A stretch of 64,000 nucleotides of DNA, from the NCBI GenBank assembly GCA_963804165.1, contig CAWDPO010000041.1, forward strand, positions 1 to 64,000, in the 5' to 3' direction. Numbering within the stretch: the first letter of the stretch is position 1; each line of letters opens with the position of its first letter. Below are positions 762 through 61,323 of the stretch, one piece after another. The notes below the pieces were generated by a model, which had not been told where the DNA came from, did no database searches, and was given only the letters and a program-made list of their open reading frames with translations. A program made the position numbers and the translations under genes. Source of the DNA: an uncultured delta proteobacterium. Its GTDB lineage: Bacteria; Desulfobacterota; Binatia; UBA9968.

Positions 762-778
762 CCACGCAGCGATGCCAG

Positions 779-848
779 GATTGAACTGAATTCTCCATCA
801 ACTCAATCTTCTCAGCAACCAAACTGAAGCGTCGTTCAGTTCAATCTC
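779..848. repeat. ~70 bp palindromic intergenic repeat, copy 1
   Basis: GATTGAACTGAA...TTCAGTTCAATC arms; a similar sequence lies at 5018-5087. Confidence 0.7.
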
Positions 849-1234
849 AAGAAACACATTTCCAAAAAACGATGAAACCAAGTGGCGCCACCGGCAAGCG
901 TGAAAAACCCTCGTTAGCGCTAGCACGTATATTGGTAATACACTGACCAGTGTATTGTGGTTCTGTGAGAGGTGTCGTAATTGACAACTGATTGAAAGAA
1001 CGAGTAAATTCCTTTGGCCGGGATTTTAAATTATCCTATACACTGGTCAGTATACTCGGTAGTTGAACTTAAACCGCTGCGCGGTGGCGGATGCCGTAAG
1101 GCGGTTGTCTTTCTGGTTTCCCCTCCAGGTTCCCTCTTCATTTCGAACCTAGTTTTCATAGCTCGAACTCAGCGTCCATTTTTTATCTCGCGTGATAGCG
1201 TCGCTCCCAAATTTAAATCCAAGGAGGATTTGTT

Positions 1235-2079
1235 ATGGGAGCGTTACGCACAAGGATGATCGAGGAGATGAGGTTGAGAAACTTCTCGCCCCGCACCCAG
1301 CAGTCCTATCTGGCGGCCGTTGATCGGACTGGTCAAGCATTATCGACGCTCGCCGGACCAACTGACACAAGAGGAGATTCGCGCTTATCTTTTGCATCTG
1401 GAAAAGCGCGGTTTGTCGCCCAGTTCGCGCAACGTGGCGATCTCGGGGATGAAGTTCTTTTACCACCAGATGTTGAGCTGGAACGACAAGCAGTTGTTTA
1501 TTCCCGCCGAGAAGGCGCAGTTGGCAACTGCCCGAAGTGTTAGGCCAGAAGAAGGAAGTCGAGCGTTTGCTGTTGGCCTGGGAAAAACAGCGCGACCGTT
1601 GTCTGTTGACGACCGGCTTGAACTACGGGGGGGCCGGGTCAGTGAATTGGTTCGGCTCAAAGTCAGCGCCATCGACAGTGAACGGATGATGGTGCGGGTG
1701 GGAGCAGGGCAAGGGTAGAAAAGACCGCTACACGATCTTATCTGCCCGTTTGCTCACCGAGCTGCGCTCTTATTGGAAAGAGCATCGTTCGCCGATTTAC
1801 CTGTTCCCCAACCGAAAGGGTGGTCCGATATCAATCGACTACGCCCAGCGAATCTACAATCTTGCCAAGTTGAAGGCTGGTATCCAAAAAGGCCACGGTA
1901 TCCATACGCTCAGACACTGTTTTGCCACCCATCTATTGGAAGCCGGGGTGGATCTGAGGACCATTCAGACGCTATTGGGTCATAACTCGATGGCCAGCAC
2001 CGAGCGCTACTTGCAGATTCGCCAGCACAAGATCACTACCACGGCCAATCCTTTGGATCTGCTGAGACTGCCGAACTAA
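1235..2079 (+). CDS. Tyrosine recombinase (N-terminal SAM-like domain + catalytic domain), frameshifted
   Basis: [25 protein letters not shown] start; [19 protein letters not shown] and TERY motifs; colinear with the intact paralogue at 60005-60853. Confidence 0.9.
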
Positions 2080-2094
2080 GAAGGCGGTCTCACG

Positions 2095-3285
2095 GTGCTG
2101 TCTCGCGCTGATGGGCGGGCGGCAGGAGAAAAAAAGGCAAGCCCCGAACTGGCCGATGTCTTTCGTCAGTACGGGGAGCGATATCAACGAACGCATCGAT
2201 TATCGGCTTCCCAGCAGAAAGTGATGCGGGCCGTTTCGGTGTGCCGGACTCCAGAATTGGGCGGGCATCTGGATCGATGCGAGTCTTGCGGTTTTGAGCG
2301 CCCGGCTTATAACTCCTGTCGTAACCGCCACTGTCCCAAGTGCCAAGCCTTGGCTAAGGCTCGGTGGTTGGAGAAGCAAACCTCGGAGCTTTTGCCGGTG
2401 GGGTACTTTCATCTGGTCTTCACCTTACCGCATGAGCTTAACGGTCTGATTCTGACCCATAAAAAGTCTGGTGTTGGCTTTGCTGTTTAAAGCTGTCAGT
2501 AAAACTTTATTGGAGTTTGGCCAGACACGTCTTAAGGGTTCCATCGGTATCACTGCTGTGCTGCACACCTGGGATCAAACCCTTAAAGATCATTTTCATC
2601 TGCACTGTCTGGTACCCGCAGGCGCTCTGTCTTTCGATCACAGCCGCTGGATACCGGCGCGCGAAAACTTTCTGTTTCCGGTTAAGGCCTTAAGCCGGGT
2701 GTTTCGTGGAAAGTTTTTGACTCTGTTCTTGCAGCAGGCCGGTGAGAGAGGAAAACTCCCTGCGGCCGAAAAGGGGGAAACCAAAGCATTGCGCCAAAAC
2801 GAGCTGGATCGTCTACGCGAAAAAGCCTTTCGGCTCGCCACAAAACTGTCCTCGATTACCTCGGCCGCTACACTCATCGTGTGGCTCTGTCCAATGACCG
2901 CATCCTCAGAAGTCGAAAACGCAGAGGTCACCTTGAGCTACCAAAAGATCCAAAAGATGGGAATCAAAAAAAGACCCTCCCTCCTTGATGCCCAGGAATT
3001 TATCCGTCGCTTCCTGCTTCATGTCCTGCCCGAGGGCTTCATGCGCATCCGCCACTTCGGCTTCTTGGCCAACCGATCCAAGAAACAAGCCCTCGCTCAA
3101 TGCCGCAAACTCTTGAAACTTGCTCCCGCTGTGCCTCAAAGCCCCATTCTCTCAGCTAAAAAACTTGCTGCTAAAAATCACCGGCATCGATCTTTCTCGC
3201 TGCCCGTCTTGTCTTGAGGGAACGATGATTGCCGTCGGCGACCTGCCGGCTTCGTTGAGTTTAGCTCGTTGGGGATTCTTCATGA
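2095..3285 (+). CDS. IS91-family (Y2/HUH) transposase, frameshifted
   Basis: Zn-binding CESCG..NSCRNRHCPKCQ, HUH motif DHFHLHC, EFIRRFLLHVLPEGFMRIRHFG. Confidence 0.9.
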
Positions 3286-3533
3286 AAAAGATTCCTTTGT
3301 ATCTCAGCTCGTGTGAATTCCCATCCACCGCCATCGCGCGGGTGTGTCTGGCAGTAGCCAAAACTAACTTTGAAGTCGCATGGCAGTGTCGCAATCGGCG
3401 CAACGCCACCGGCGCCGATCTCAATCCCGCAGTCCTCGGGCCTTTCTTTCGTTAACAGTGCGTCAAGCCCCGCGGCACTGCATCCTGGTTACAATCCCCA
3501 TAGCCGAAGTCTCCACGGCTGCTCCGCGGTTTA

Positions 3534-3628
3534 GTCCAACCTCGTTTTATCCCTTTGGCGTTACTCCGCGCTCTCCACCGAAACTTGACTGCCTCTAACC
3601 TCCAGGGATAAAACGCTATACGTTAGCT
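3534..3628 (+). other. attC-like terminal site of element copy 1
   Basis: GTCCAAC-ct-CGTTTTATCCCT...AGGGATAAAACG-ctatac-GTTAGCT. Confidence 0.65.
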
Positions 3629-4913: not shown

Positions 4914-5013
4914 AGCTAACCAACGCCGTGCACGAGCCCGGCGCCCGCTGGCGGTTCCCGCTGAACGTGAAGGTTACGGTTTGGGTGGCGGCCCGTGACG
5001 GCGAACGTTAGCG
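4914..5013 (+). other. Integron attC site
   Basis: AGCTAAC caa CGCCGT[G]CACG...CGTGACGGCG aac GTTAGCG, with an extrahelical base; CAGCTAAC complements GTTAGCTG at 3622. Confidence 0.8.
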
Positions 5014-5017
5014 CTGT

Positions 5018-5087
5018 GATTGAACTGAATTCTCCATCTAATCAATCTCGCGCTAGATCAAACTGAAGCATCGTTCAGCTCAATCTC
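5018..5087. repeat. ~70 bp palindromic intergenic repeat, copy 2
   Basis: GATTGAACTGAATTCTCCATC...AAACTGAAGC.TCGTTCAG.TCAATCTC, as at 779-848. Confidence 0.7.
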
Positions 5088-5194
5088 AGGGCTAAACTTG
5101 GTCTCCCACTCGATGAACGTCTGTTCGTCATAAATCTCACTTTTCTCTACTACCGCTCATGCCGCCGTGATACATACCGAATGGTGTGTGTGCA

Positions 5195-12197: not shown

Positions 12198-12386
12198 ATG
12201 CAACAAAATTTGCTGACAACGGATCAAGTAGCCCGCTACCTAAAGGTAGATAAATTCACTGTGTATCGACTTGTTGCACAAAAAAAAATCCCGGCGTTTA
12301 AAGTCGGTAATCAGTGGCGGTTCAATAAGAAGATGATTGATGAGTGGTTGATGAAGAACTGCAATTTGCCGGCTGGGCAGACGTAG
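12198..12386 (+). CDS. Excisionase-type helix-turn-helix protein
   Basis: LLTTDQVARYLKVDKFTVYRLVAQKKIPAFKVGNQWRF. Confidence 0.85.
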   Translation: MQQNLLTTDQVARYLKVDKFTVYRLVAQKKIPAFKVGNQWRFNKKMIDEWLMKNCNLPAGQT

Positions 12387-12440
12387 CGGTTTTTGCCAAT
12401 GAAGAACATCTTACGAGAGTGAACTCAAAAATATCTGATA

Positions 12441-13928
12441 ATGAATGAGTGTAGCGAAATGGAAGCACCCGTTCTCAGCACTGAAGCGATCACCCGGATG
12501 ATTGGATGCAAGCCGACGGTGCCCCTTACTCCACAAGAGATGGCATGCTCGCTCAGAGTCGCATTTTATCCGGCTGTTAATACCAACGAAACGTTGGAAA
12601 AGTTTCTAGACACACTTAGGCTTATACTTATACGAGCCGGGGTTAACGTCATTGGCTACGATGAAGCGCTTAATGAAGGCCAAAACGGTTGTATAGGAAA
12701 GGGAATCGTTCTAATCGCTCCAGGAGAGGGCGAGCCGGGAAATCTTGCAATTGATCACGTAGCCAGCCTCACTGAGAACACTGTCGTTGGCGTTTATTGC
12801 GGTGCGATGCCTGGAATGGGACAGAATAGATTCCAAAAACGAGTCGACTCCTTAGTAAGCGCGCTAGTCTGGCACATGGTGCAAGTCATAATTTACGTGG
12901 ACGATGAATCGTGGACAATCTGTACTATGAATGGCGGAATTGATACCTATGCTCTAGAGAAACTGGAGGCCAGAGTCCTTGATTCCTTGGTTCCGAAGCT
13001 CGCGGCTCCAGTGGTACCGCCACAAGCGACTGACTTCGCCATTCGCAAAGACGCGTTCGATCCATCCATACCCGATTATCAGACAAGCGTTCGTGACTTG
13101 GTTGCCGGGTCAGTCATCTGGGGGGAGTCGGGCCTTCTGGCTTCTCAAACGAGGCTTGACGAACTTACTTATCGCAATCTTAAATATAAGCGAATCGCAG
13201 CCGCATATCTTAGCTCTCGAACGGGAATGAGTTACGGGTTTCTTTCCCGCCAGCTTCCACTGACTGTAACGCCCGCTGTCGAGCTAGATTATGCTCACCA
13301 GATGTTGCGACGAATAGACTGGGAGCAAAAAGACTTCATTGAGATTGACGATCAAATGCTCGTAGCTGCAAAATTAGGGCACAAACGATTCGTTTTGAGA
13401 ATCCCGGAAGTAACAGTTCTGTGCACCCGCTCGGGTTGTGATAAAGCGAGACTCAATCTGTCGAAAGACCTTGTGACTCTTACGCTCTCAAAAGGTCGTA
13501 TTATTTTGGGTTTGGCCAAAGGACTTCCGGACGGAAGTGACTGCCAACCATCATTTGACACGTTGATTATTCTTGCGCATGCGGTCGGCAACGCTATTCT
13601 TGCCAGTATCCTGGCTACGATCAAACCAGGTTCGAAGTTTTATTTGGCGCTAACGCACCACGGTCTTGCGATTACTCATTGGCATGGATTCGTAGAGGCT
13701 ACGACGTTGCCGGAGGGTTACTATATGCACGGTAATAGCAATCCTCCAGTATCGTGTTCTACACCCCAAGCTGCGATATTTGGATTGATGGGGAAGCTTG
13801 CGGCTTTGCAACAGAGTATTGCAGACGGAAAGGAATATATGGGCGATGCGCATATTGAGCCAAGCCATGGAACCAATATGTGCGGTGGATCGATAACGGA
13901 CCTGGTTAGATTGGCTACTGGAATATAG
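12441..13928 (+). CDS. Hypothetical protein, possible C-terminal class II aldolase-like domain
   Basis: 495 aa ORF; spacing of TRSGCDK..L..DLV, PSFDT, THWHG and PSHGT resembles class II aldolase motifs (judged by eye). Confidence 0.55.
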   Translation: MNECSEMEAPVLSTEAITRMIGCKPTVPLTPQEMACSLRVAFYPAVNTNETLEKFLDTLRLILIRAGVNVIGYDEALNEGQNGCIGKGIVLIAPGEGEPGNLAIDHVASLTENTVVGVYCGAMPGMGQNRFQKRVDSLVSALVWHMVQVIIYVDDESWTICTMNGGIDTYALEKLEARVLDSLVPKLAAPVVPPQATDFAIRKDAFDPSIPDYQTSVRDLVAGSVIWGESGLLASQTRLDELTYRNLKYKRIAAAYLSSRTGMSYGFLSRQLPLTVTPAVELDYAHQMLRRIDWEQKDFIEIDDQMLVAAKLGHKRFVLRIPEVTVLCTRSGCDKARLNLSKDLVTLTLSKGRIILGLAKGLPDGSDCQPSFDTLIILAHAVGNAILASILATIKPGSKFYLALTHHGLAITHWHGFVEATTLPEGYYMHGNSNPPVSCSTPQAAIFGLMGKLAALQQSIADGKEYMGDAHIEPSHGTNMCGGSITDLVRLATGI

Positions 13929-18125: not shown

Positions 18126-19542
<1,417 letters not shown>

Positions 19543-57657: not shown

Positions 57658-57914
57658 CTCTGTCTGATTCCCGAGAGGTGAAATACGGAAAGCGCCAATT
57701 TGGACGCTTTGGGCAGAGTTCGTGCGATGGCGCGAGCGCAGTGGATGCTCTAACTCTGTCCTCAACAAACCGCAATACTCTCCATTGCCCACCCTCAGCG
57801 TCCGTTTTGCCAGCGTCATCAACTGCAACACTCGCCACGCCGGTCAGAATCAAATATTTGCGCGGCCTGGTCAAATACGGCGGTTGGTTTCCTGGTGCGG
57901 AAAAGCGAAGCGGC

Positions 57915-57977
57915 GGCTAACGTTTCGTTAACGCGCGCGCCGTTCGCGGCGCGTCGGTGTTGAACGCTGGGTTGGGC
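57915..57977 (-). other. Integron attC site (63 bp)
   Basis: GCCCAAC ccagc GTT[C]AAC..cgcgccg cgaa cggcgcg..GTTAAC gaaac GTTAGCC; canonical box spacing and extrahelical base. Confidence 0.88.
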
Positions 57978-58478: not shown

Positions 58479-58572
58479 GCCCAACGTATAGCGTTTTATC
58501 CCCTAAAGGTTGGCGGCAATCAAGTTGCTTGATGGCGCTGGAGTATCGCTAAGGGGAAAAAACGTGTTGGAC
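58479..58572 (-). other. attC-like terminal site of element copy 2
   Basis: GTCCAAC-a-CGTTTTTTCCCCT...AGGGGATAAAACG-ctatac-GTTGGGC. Confidence 0.65.
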
Positions 58573-58816
58573 TAAACCGCGGAGCCGCTGAGCAGCTGCG
58601 GCTATGGGGATTGTAACCTGACGCAGTGCGGCTGAGCAGGGCACCGCGTTAGCGATAGTACGGCCAGTGGATGATGGTTGAGATCAGCGCCGGTGGTTTT
58701 TCGCCGATTGCGACACTGCCATGCAACTTCAGAGGCGGTTTTGGGCAGAGCCAAACGCACCCGCGCTAAGTCGGCAGATTGAGAGTCACACCAGCTGAGA
58801 GGCGATGGAGCCTTGC

Positions 58817-59992
58817 TCATGAAGAATCCACACGAGGCGAGATCGAGAACGCCGGTAGGTCGCCGACGACAATCATCCTTCCCTCACCGCAGCACGGGCA
58901 GCGAGAAAGATCGACGCCTGTGATTTTAAGCAGCAGGTCTTTGGCTGAGAGCAAGGGAGGTTGCGGCAAAGCGGGATCGAGATCGAGGAGTTTGCGGCAC
59001 TGAGCGAGCGCTAGTTTTTTGGCGCGGTTAGCCAACAAGCCGAAGTGACGGATGCGCATGAAGCCTTGCGGCAAGACGTGAAGCAAAAAGCGGCGGATAA
59101 ATTCCTGGGCCTCCAGCGTCATGGTCTTTTTGCGATCCCCGTCTCTTCGATCTCGATAACTCAAGGTGACTTCTCCGTCTTGGATCTGGAGAATACGATT
59201 GTTGGACAGCGCCACGCGGTGGGTGTAGCGGCCGAGGTAGTCAAGCACCGTGTGGGGCGAGCCGAAAGGCTTTTTGGTATAGACCCCCCAGTTCTTTTGG
59301 CGTAACTCGTTGATGGCTTCGCTTGGGAAATCGATTTTTCCTCGCACGATGTTGTGTTGTAACAGATCGAGAAACTTTGCTCGGAAAACCAAGCTTAAAG
59401 CTTTAACCGGAAACAGAAAGTTTTTGCGCGCCGAGATCCAGCGATTTTGATCGAAAGACAGAGCACCGGCGGGGACAAGACAGTGCAGATGAAAATGATC
59501 CTTGAGGGTTTGGTCCCAGGTGTGCAGCACGGCAATGATACCGATGGTTCCCTTAAGACGTGTCTGGCCAAACTCCAACAAGGTTTTACTGACAGCTTTA
59601 AACAGAAGACCCAGTACGATCTTCTTGTTGGCAAGGATCAGCCGGTTCAGTTCATGGGGTAAGGTAAAGACCAAATGAAAATATCCCACCGGCAAAAGCT
59701 CAGAGGTTTGCTTCTCCAACCACCGAGCCTTAGCCAAGGCTTGGCACTTGGGACAGTGGCGGTTACGGCAGGAGTTATAAGCCGGACGCTCAAAGCCGCA
59801 AGACTCGCATCGATCCAGATGCCCGCCCAACTCTTGGGTGCGGCAGGCCGAAACGGCCCGCACCACCTTTTGCTCGCAGGCCAATAAACGATGCGTTCGT
59901 TGGTAGCTCTCCCCGTACTGACGAAAAACATCGGCCAGCTCGGGACGCGCCCTTTTTTCTCCTGCCGCCAGCCCAGGGCTGGCCGGCAGCAT
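58817..59992 (-). CDS. IS91-family (Y2/HUH) transposase
   Basis: NSCRNRHCPKCQ, DHFHLHC, YLGRY, RIRHFGLL. Confidence 0.93.
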   Translation of the reverse strand: MLPASPGLAAGEKRARPELADVFRQYGESYQRTHRLLACEQKVVRAVSACRTQELGGHLDRCESCGFERPAYNSCRNRHCPKCQALAKARWLEKQTSELLPVGYFHLVFTLPHELNRLILANKKIVLGLLFKAVSKTLLEFGQTRLKGTIGIIAVLHTWDQTLKDHFHLHCLVPAGALSFDQNRWISARKNFLFPVKALSLVFRAKFLDLLQHNIVRGKIDFPSEAINELRQKNWGVYTKKPFGSPHTVLDYLGRYTHRVALSNNRILQIQDGEVTLSYRDRRDGDRKKTMTLEAQEFIRRFLLHVLPQGFMRIRHFGLLANRAKKLALAQCRKLLDLDPALPQPPLLSAKDLLLKITGVDLSRCPCCGEGRMIVVGDLPAFSISPRVDSS

Positions 59993-60004
59993 GTGGCTAC
60001 CTGG

Positions 60005-60853
60005 CTACAGCGAGTCGTTGCGCGGATCGAGCAAGTCCAACGGACTCGTGGTCGAGCCCAGCTTGGGCTGGCGGATTTGCAGATAGCGCTGGGTACTCTG
60101 AAGCGAGTTATGACCCAACAGCGTCTTAATAGTCACCAGATCCACTCCCGCTTCTAACAGGTGGGTGGCGAAACAGTGACGCAGCGTGTGAATCCCTTTG
60201 CCTTTTTCAATGCCGCTTTTGTGCTTGGCGAGATTGTAGACTTTCTGCGCGGCGGTGATGTGCAGGGGATCATTTCTGGTTTTACCAAAGAAGACCCACA
60301 GCACGGGTTGATAGGCCTGCTTATATTTTCTCAGCTCGCCAAGCAGCCGTTGGGAGAGAATCGTGTAGCGGTCTTTTTTCCCTTTGCCCTGTTCCACTCG
60401 GATCATCATACGCTCGGGATGAATGTCGCTGAGTTTGAGGTGGATTAGCTCAGTGACCCGAAGTCCCGCCGCATAAGCGGTCATCAGTAAACAGCGGTCT
60501 CTGAGCTTGACCGCGGCGCAAAGCAATCGCTCGACTTCCCTGGGGCTCAACACCTCGGGCAACCGCCACGTCCGTTTTCTCGGCGGCAAGAACAGCTGCT
60601 CTTCGTTCCAGCCCAAAACTTGCTGATAGAAAAACCGTAGCCCCGAGATCGCCACGTTCTGGGAATTGGCGGATAAGCCTCGTTTCTGGAGATGCAACAG
60701 ATAGGCGCGGATCTCGTCTTGCGTCAGTTGATCCGGGAATCGATGATAGTACCTGGCCAGCCCCACCATCGCCGCAACGTAGGACTTCTGCGTCCTCGAT
60801 GCGAAATTTCTCAGCTTCATCTCCTCGATCATCTTGTCGCGTAATACTCCCAT
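60005..60853 (-). CDS. Tyrosine recombinase
   Basis: [41 protein letters not shown]. Confidence 0.95.
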   Translation of the reverse strand: MGVLRDKMIEEMKLRNFASRTQKSYVAAMVGLARYYHRFPDQLTQDEIRAYLLHLQKRGLSANSQNVAISGLRFFYQQVLGWNEEQLFLPPRKRTWRLPEVLSPREVERLLCAAVKLRDRCLLMTAYAAGLRVTELIHLKLSDIHPERMMIRVEQGKGKKDRYTILSQRLLGELRKYKQAYQPVLWVFFGKTRNDPLHITAAQKVYNLAKHKSGIEKGKGIHTLRHCFATHLLEAGVDLVTIKTLLGHNSLQSTQRYLQIRQPKLGSTTSPLDLLDPRNDSL

Positions 60854-61323
60854 AAAAAACCCTCCTTGGATTTAAATTTGGGAGCGACGCTATCACGCGA
60901 ACTGAGAAAACCGGGAGTGGAATTGAACTGTGAAACCTAACGCAGATTTCGAAAGCAGTCTAAAGCAGAAAACTCCGCACGGCATCCCCACCCGCGCAGC
61001 GGTTTAGTTCAACTATTAAGTGAGCTGCCGTAGGCCGCGACAATTACTGGTCGGCTTATCCTCGGCGACGGCTTCGACAACAAAAGTCCAAATTGCCTAC
61101 AATATCCATCAGCTACCGAGTCATGTCAACTCAGCGTTTCCGACAAAAGCCGACCGACGCGGCGGGTTATCTCCCTCTCGATCGGCGGCTTATGCCAGCT
61201 AAAGTTCAGGTGCATCCGTCGGTCCCGCTTGCATGTGCCATTGCGCCTGGATCTCGCCTGCACGGTTTCTCTTGCTCCGCGTCCCGTTTCCGCAGTAGAG
61301 ATTAAAGGAGAAGGGGCCGGACT

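Follow-up and report, generated by a model that had tools for sequence, protein, structure and literature searches.

A two-gene IS91-family element with its own tyrosine recombinase at attI-like sites of an uncultured Binatia bacterium

We describe here a mobile element in a stretch of 64,000 nucleotides, referred to throughout as the window, from an uncultured delta proteobacterium (Desulfobacterota, Binatia, UBA9968; GenBank assembly GCA_963804165.1, contig CAWDPO010000041.1, positions 1 to 64,000 of the forward strand). The intact element (copy B) occupies positions 58486-61013 of the minus strand, measures 2528 bp from its opening GTTGAAC to its closing CTATAC, and carries two genes, the first for a tyrosine recombinase (YR) and the second for an IS91-family transposase of the Y2 (HUH) type. 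On our reading the element has, within this genus, specialised on the recombination sites of integrons: the main family to which it belongs is placed between the end of attI and a GTTAGSC core, as the first cassette of an integron would be, and a sister family occupies an attC-like palindromic repeat. Judged from sequence comparison, the position at attI and the identity of the element as an IS91 relative are both near certain. The YR+Y2 pair is old and already annotated, and the element is a member of this known two-gene IS91 subgroup; what we have not found in print is the repeated occupation of attI and a right end, oriIS, that is split by a hairpin and folds like an attC site. Within the portion of the literature searched, no paper states that IS91 elements with YR and Y2 occupy attI, and none describes a split oriIS with an attC-like fold. 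The nearest published hint is a remark, in a paper on Shewanella integrons, that ISShvi3 adjoins an attC.

Position of the element in its genome and at attI

Two diverged copies with the ends given above had been proposed in the initial annotation of the window, and both the sequence and a pairwise alignment bear them out; the existence of a two-copy element with ends conserved beyond chance is confirmed. Similarity between the copies sets in at (TA)GTTGAAC, at 61013 on the minus strand in copy B and at 1062 on the plus strand in copy A, and stops past CTATAC-GTT (58486/58483 and 3621/3624, respectively). Copy A (1062-3621, plus strand) is ~75% identical to copy B by blastn and is decayed, each of its genes being frameshifted or stopped and split over several frames, whereas both genes of copy B are whole. 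The ends of copy B are common to four full-length copies in the genome, alignable end to end, and to relatives in other genomes; the genome also holds two truncated copies, one solo right end of 131 bp and a diverged sister family on contigs C18, C23 (twice), C24 and C30. Since flanks are shared by the contig pairs C41a/C5, C41b/C9 and C10/C37, only about three independent insertion sites are represented, plus that of the solo right end on C17; each pair probably represents one locus in related strains, or else a duplication. The pairs C41/C5, C41/C9 and C10/C37 are near-identical including the insertion sites (99% in one pair), and the assembly, with 46 contigs, 81% completeness and 5% contamination, probably mixes close strains or contains recent duplications. 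The solo right end (C17:199338-199469, 96% identity) consists of the subterminal 15-mer, the hairpin and CTATAC beside GTTAGGC, with no left end nearby.

The sequence to the left of each copy, at first sight mere flank, is itself conserved and attI-like, and both window copies stand at the end of such a sequence. For copy B this is a class-1 attI-like sequence (61014-61200, minus strand), with a promoter-like TTGACA-N17-GATATT aimed at the element; its ~190 bases form a dispersed repeat in the genus. Copy A abuts a class-2 sequence (930-1061, plus strand) that matches the stretch right behind the intI stop codon in genome G012 (locus L121), and that stretch ends ...CAGTATACTCACAA/GTTAGCC. The end of the class-1 repeat is covered in 34 distinct copies, six of which abut the element and 28 of which do not; among the latter, 21 read ...CTCACTTAATA/GTT, mostly GTTAGGC, followed by unrelated sequence, so that the junction of solo copies is ...TTAATA/GTTAGGC. 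The repeat also has a GCCGCC-TAC-GGCGGC hairpin, with two-sided changes among copies. A canonical IntI, scoring 445-471 bits on the IntI model, is encoded by nine of the 31 genus genomes. In G021, G007 and G005 (unpublished genome) the class-1 repeat begins ~25 nt past the intI stop and runs in the same direction, further variants in G015, G006 and G014 likewise end before GTT, and a longer subfamily of the repeat corresponds to the 3' end of intI. Because these repeats lie right behind intI and end at GTT, they can be taken as attI regions, many of them orphaned.

The same arrangement recurs outside the window genome. Among the external loci, 21 have at least 100 nt of flank and are informative, and in nine of these the class-1 attI profile stops at the element's first base, as it also does in C41b and C9; six further loci have only the last ~13 bases in common with the attI types. 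An intI gene or a remnant of one lies upstream of the element in five loci: L014 has a whole intI, 210 nt of attI, the element and then GTTAGCC, and L018, L020, L021 and L031 have intI remnants 176-261 nt upstream, those of L020 and L021 being cut at different points. The left side of copy B has element-free orthologues in G018 and G021; in G018 the left neighbourhood, with an oxidoreductase gene and the attI-like repeat, is present. The gene on the right flank of copy B has no close orthologue in the 31 genus genomes, and the unoccupied state of this site is therefore deduced from other attI-like copies.

The ~190-nt attI-like sequence was seen about ten times per genome, mostly without intI, in G018, G015, G014, G003 and G021 and in the window's own genome (C15:25840-26018); a start codon often follows 20-60 nt downstream, and the copies give the impression of numerous integron platforms that have been orphaned. 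At L130 (G018:C6) the attI-like sequence beside a canonical intI stops at profile position 134 (12361-12553), with a full second copy 6 kb further on (18749-18874), and something may have inserted into attI there. A different dispersed repeat of ~150 nt (window 57758-57915) lies between two convergent genes to the right of copy B and has copies in at least 15 genus genomes.

Ends, proteins and relatives of the element

The left end (terIS side) is the 15-mer GTTGAACTAAACCGC (60999-61013, minus strand), which opens with GTTG and is followed by the palindrome CCGC-TGC-GCGG. Its inverted partner, GCGGTTTAGTCCAAC (58566-58580, minus strand), lies near the right end, is complementary to it at 14 of 15 positions and forms the first half of the oriIS motif. 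A single A separates this subterminal 15-mer from a conserved hairpin (58492-58564, minus strand; arms 58564-58552 and 58504-58492, 47-nt loop), whose 13-nt stem has one mismatch in copy B. The terminal hexamer CTATAC (58486-58491, minus strand), the same word that closes the oriIS of ISCR elements, is adjoined by GTT (58483-58485, minus strand), a target word that can be assigned to either side. The cassette-like geometry that had been pointed out in the window, with paired 15-mers, hairpin, CTATAC and GTT, is thus real, and it is conserved in relatives. The end and gene-order counts refer to 27 loci of other genomes, retrieved through YR. The left 15-mer, with two mismatches at most, is found in 24 of them and the right end in 18, and in all 18 of the latter the parts follow one order (left 15-mer, genes, right 15-mer, hairpin), although the left 15-mer is missing from L016 and L017. 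This single order rules out an inversion between the two inverted 15-mers. The word on the right flank of the 18 right ends is GTT in 16 and GCT in two, in keeping with the IS91 rule of a T at position 2.

The stem has persisted while its letters changed, two-sided changes having left it intact in four lineages: the main family (CGTTTTATCCC / GGGATAAAACG), L031 (AGTTTTATCCCCGATGCC / GGCATCAGGGATAAAACT), the Rhizobiales plasmids (CGTTTTTAGCG / CGCTAAAAACG) and the sister family (GGTTTTATCCTGAATGCG / CGCATTCAGGTTAAAACC). Stems were counted sequence by sequence, because in an RNAalifold consensus of 22 right ends the alignment gaps shifted the register and yielded a stem of 9 pairs. With DNA parameters the long-range stem folds in 23 of 24 distinct right ends, and the exception has an insertion. 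The stems comprise 10-20 pairs with no more than one mismatch, and their asymmetry is that of 1 nt against the 6-nt CTATAC. At its foot, GTCCAAC (58572-58566) pairs at six of seven positions with GTTGAAC of the left end or with GTTRRRY of the flank, as an inverse core would with a core. A search of Rfam with the element and its flanks gave nothing at E <= 1.

The same ends carry the signature of a rolling-circle transposon. By eye, the right end GCGGTTTA...CTATAC is the oriIS motif of the ISCR elements with its halves separated by the hairpin; the oriIS sequences quoted for ISCR1 (GTGGTTTATACTTCCTATACCC) and ISCR27 (GCGGTTGAACTTCCTATACC) in the available parts of the literature share with it the words GYGGTTTA...CTATAC. 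Two palindromes lie at the right end and one at the left. No target duplication was found: the flanks of the four genome copies and of 18 related copies share only GTT, which is also the element's first three bases, and a comparison of occupied with unoccupied attI copies gives the same result. A 2026 account of the IS91 family (PMC13181058) likewise describes the absence of target duplication, a target tetranucleotide (CTTG, GTTC or GTCC) beside oriIS, where one or two subterminal palindromes are found as well, a terIS made up of a cleavage tetranucleotide and one palindrome, and single- and double-stranded circles that link both ends. On their sequence, then, the ends of the element are a variant of classical IS91-family termini, split by a hairpin, and the oriIS words, the GTTG with its palindrome and the GTT flank together identify the supposed G/TT cores as the target and cleavage words of that family. 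The initial annotation had preferred an attC-type cassette to a classical IS91 element with oriIS and terIS. This opposition does not hold, given the oriIS words, the GTTG with palindrome and the lack of target duplication, though the position at the GTT of attI and the geometry do favour the cassette half of the idea; nor did the announced counter-evidence, classical termini with no conserved hairpin, materialise as a whole, the termini being classical and the hairpin conserved. In locus L029 (2624-2669) the last 19 bases of the right end and GTTT are tandemly duplicated (...CTATAC GTTT TAGGGATAAAACGCTATAC GTTAGT), which may reflect replication that began or ended aberrantly.

The Y2 transposase (391 aa; 58817-59992, minus strand), whose gene starts 12 nt past the YR stop codon, matches PF04986 (194 bits) and PF14319 (109 bits) and scores 445.6 bits on the IS91-family model NF033538, for which the cut-off is 125. 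The YR (282 aa; 60005-60853, minus strand; PF13495 and PF00589) is IntI-like and, as had been proposed, lacks the IntI insertion. It scores below every curated NCBIfam cut-off (XerA 178/220, XerD 159/330 and XerC 154/335 bits), and on the IntI model TIGR02249 it reaches 159 bits, in two stretches, against a cut-off of 265. In an alignment of ten proteins the ~41 columns of the insertion are present only in the two IntI and absent from all eight element recombinases, a gap also stands in their place when YR is compared with structure 2a3v, and all ten proteins keep the catalytic R, K, HxxR, H and Y without variation. Among solved structures an archaeal XerA-like protein comes closest (131.7 bits), followed by Vibrio IntI (96.4 bits, split over two pieces). 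In a small tree the eight element recombinases form one clade (99/98) beside six IntI of the genus (82/91); the outgroup consists of only three long rows, so this sister relation is weakly tested. The available part of a preprint (10.1101/542381) also places IS91-borne recombinases beside IntI, and the available part of its journal version no longer names IS91.

Relatives of YR are numerous (7604 at E <= 0.001 among 8000 scored candidates), and many of their contigs are about the size of the element. In 23 of the 27 loci a Y2 gene stands immediately behind YR; the others are L030 and L037, where the contig is too short, L035, where the next 4.7 kb contain no such gene, and L040, whose recombinase is unrelated (31% identity). 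L035 (2878-3990) has a left end and a recombinase gene with neither Y2 nor a right end in that 4.7 kb, and represents a form with the recombinase alone or one derived by deletion. A tblastn search of plasmids with Y2 gave 654 records, of which the best, at 41-48% identity, come from Clostridium, Sinorhizobium, Rhizobium, Mesorhizobium and others, the IS91-type transposases of enterobacteria reaching only 25-32%. All seven plasmid loci that were opened (Clostridium, Sinorhizobium, Rhizobium) have YR directly upstream of Y2, annotated as a site-specific integrase or "integron integrase". In ISfinder, IS91 members with a YR go by names such as ISShvi3 and ISWz1. The Clostridium relatives, several copies of which are on plasmids, start with the same TTGAACTAAACCGC and share the left 15-mer; Rhizobiales elements keep the layout of 15-mer, A, hairpin and hexamer, and end in CTCTGC beside ATT or CTT. 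The right flank of L104 (4079-4100) and L105 (4041-4062), from Sinorhizobium and Rhizobium, opens with a perfect 20-nt palindrome of the TTATG...CATAA type, which suggests a hairpin or recombinase-type target there too. In Clostridium, L126 and L127 (745-771 in each) have a common left-flank word, AAATGTCGTGAAA, whose inverted complement occurs inside the right ends of L103 and L127.

The sister family occupies a different kind of site, a palindromic repeat of ~85 nt (...GAAGCGTC/element/GTTCAGTTCAATC...). An attC-like copy of this repeat lies near copy A in the window (762-850, plus strand), with a second at ~4998-5090. The sister family lies 5 nt off the outer GTT of the repeat. The genome has 82 hits to the profile of this repeat, grouped in same-strand arrays with a spacing of 0.5-4 kb and varied small genes between them (e.g., C21:3930-11470, C5, C12, C23 and C43); its outer stem is GATTGAACTGAA/TTCAGTTCAATC, and several copies fold as long hairpins. 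These arrays look like cassette arrays, in an assembly without canonical intI, and "attC-like" is meant as a description of palindrome, same-strand arrangement and predicted fold, not as proof. The profile had no hits in three stretches of 20 kb beside canonical intI genes (G015, G014 and G018), and the candidate role of the repeat as the attC of the genus integrons is accordingly not confirmed.

Routes by which the element may reach attI

The arrangement of ends and genes would be accounted for if Y2 nicked at CTATAC/GTT and copied the element out by rolling-circle replication up to the left end. Once the circle has formed, the foot of the conserved hairpin could be closed by pairing between the left and the subterminal 15-mer, giving an attC-like fold, and a tyrosine recombinase, most simply the element's own YR, would then exchange strands at GTT with attI. 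We lean towards this combination, in which Y2 makes the circle and the element's YR integrates it at the GTT of attI, and hold it tentatively, its chances being in our view close to even and somewhat on the lower side. The narrow choice of site, one base position in several attI classes, fits a site-specific recombinase better than a transposase guided by a tetranucleotide, and the strict linkage of YR to Y2 together with the intact active sites argues that YR is catalytic. Cleavage before GTT, in the style of IS91, and exchange at G/TT, in the style of integrons, yield products identical in sequence, and sequence data therefore do not separate the two modes of joining.

Several observations weigh against integration by the element's own YR. 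Attached to five of the 21 informative external loci (L019, L027, L035, L036 and L039) no attI-like flank was found, the sister family has inserted at GTTC, a word of the kind that IS91 elements typically target, 5 nt inward from the outer GTT of its repeat, and the ends of the Clostridium and Rhizobiales relatives are not beside GTT. No canonical intI was found in the contigs of the window genome, an 81% complete assembly. In assembled DNA none of 59 right-end motif hits is followed by a left end, as a tandem or circle junction would be, and neither a back-joint nor a precise-excision joint appeared in the contigs of four soil runs, in which one could hardly be seen; all 24 public runs were Logan contigs from metagenomes, of soil or otherwise, and none had a word share above 0.40. 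YR scores nearer to an archaeal XerA-like structure than to IntI, the hairpin stem, with hardly any imperfection, has none of the bulged bases that attC sites are described as having, and IS91, IS801 and IS1294 transpose by Y2 alone (PMC13181058), so that YR need not be the integrating enzyme.

This last point leads to ordinary IS91-type transposition, in which Y2 cuts and joins everything and picks GTTN, attI and attC being hit for their GTT near hairpins or exposed single strands, and YR has an accessory role in recognising or terminating at an end (like Orf121 of IS91), in regulation or in resolving multimers. We consider this a possible but less probable account. Ends that follow oriIS/terIS logic speak for it, as do the GTTC site of the sister family, the five loci outside attI, the mobility of relatives in integron-poor hosts such as those of the Clostridium plasmids, and the accessory Orf121, which sharpens the use of terIS in IS91 (PMC13181058). 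Against it, classical members need only a tetranucleotide and about half of the informative loci here lie at one base position of attI, and the catalytic residues of YR have all been kept over a deep tree, which a mere DNA-binding helper would not need. A host integron might instead capture the element, its IntI recognising the attC-like fold of the circle and inserting it at its own attI while YR performs another step. Insertion at attI of different classes (class 1, class 2 and the L031 type) would be easier if each IntI handled its own attI, and in a class 1 integron a recombinase-less IS91-family gene does take the place of a regular cassette, with an attC on one side and the 3' conserved segment on the other; we nevertheless think capture unlikely, because in the majority of occupied attI sites intI is reduced to a remnant or absent, the window genome as assembled lacks a canonical intI, and the stem is without the bulged bases described for strand choice by IntI. 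It is highly improbable that there is no targeting at all and that read-through (one-ended transposition) picked up pieces of attI on the left side, attI and element travelling as a unit. Read-through past terIS is known in the IS91 family (PMC13181058), and several attI-like copies next to the element have no intI; but 28 attI-like copies have no element, some of them right behind whole intI genes, the intI remnants of L020 and L021 are cut at different points, and G018 has the left neighbourhood of copy B without the element.

A wider reading, which we regard as rather doubtful, takes the YR+Y2 elements as autonomous integron cassettes, in which HUH copy-out gives a single-stranded circle and an IntI-like YR that never had, or has lost, the insertion pastes it at the GTT of attI or attC through the attC-like fold built from oriIS; IS91-type ends and attC, like IS91-borne recombinases and IntI, would then share an origin. 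Were this true, the elements would form a surviving connection between rolling-circle transposons and integrons. The element in any case unites rolling-circle ends that fold like attC, the closest relatives of IntI outside integrons and the cassette insertion point of attI, and it bears on how integrons and cassettes arose and on what the recombinase does in IS91 elements with two genes. Such elements separate the cassette array from the attI promoter, in many cases with a decayed intI next to them, and may therefore silence or reshape environmental integrons.

Comparison with known systems

With the IS91 family (IS91, IS801, IS1294 and ISCR) the element has in common a Y2 transposase with a zinc-binding N-terminus, the lack of target duplication, a target word beside oriIS, a left end made of a word and a palindrome, and the oriIS words GYGGTTTA...CTATAC. 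It differs in the conserved hairpin of ~75 nt that splits oriIS, in the additional YR gene and in a choice of site far narrower than a tetranucleotide, and its transposase is only 25-32% identical to that of the enterobacterial members. The IS91 members with an upstream YR on RefSeq plasmids are closer: gene order and spacing are the same, as are the left 15-mer in Clostridium and the layout of 15-mer, hairpin and hexamer in Rhizobiales, whereas transposase identity is 41-48%, hexamers or flanks differ, and these members were not seen at attI. A parallel for the joint use of two enzymes, drawn in PMC9345347, is offered by CTX phage and other Xer-integrated elements. These combine a rolling-circle HUH protein with integration of a folded single strand by tyrosine recombinases, completed by replication; the recombinases there are XerCD of the host, acting at dif, and here the YR is borne by the element and the site is that of an integron.

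Integron cassettes share with the element a junction core of the GTTRRRY type (consensus in PMC3826837), a GTCCAAC that resembles an inverse core, a hairpin whose loop varies, and a place directly behind attI as the first unit, in the same direction as the attI promoter. The element is set apart by having two genes and its own ends, and a YR of its own without the IntI insertion; and its near-perfect stem has a one-sided 6-nt bulge in place of the bulged single bases of attC. The recombinase-less IS91-family gene mentioned above, 32% identical, shows how near the two kinds of unit can come: in the Klebsiella pneumoniae plasmid pTHC11-2 (L106, 1333-2796) it is a class 1 integron cassette that starts with GTTGAAC right behind the attC of aadA2 and carries the inverse core GTTCAAC close to its end, beyond which lies the GTTAGAT of the 3' conserved segment. 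Other mobile elements have become specialised for integron recombination sites, namely the IS1111-attC insertion sequences, with a DEDD transposase, and the group IIC-attC introns, with a reverse transcriptase; both of these target attC, not attI.

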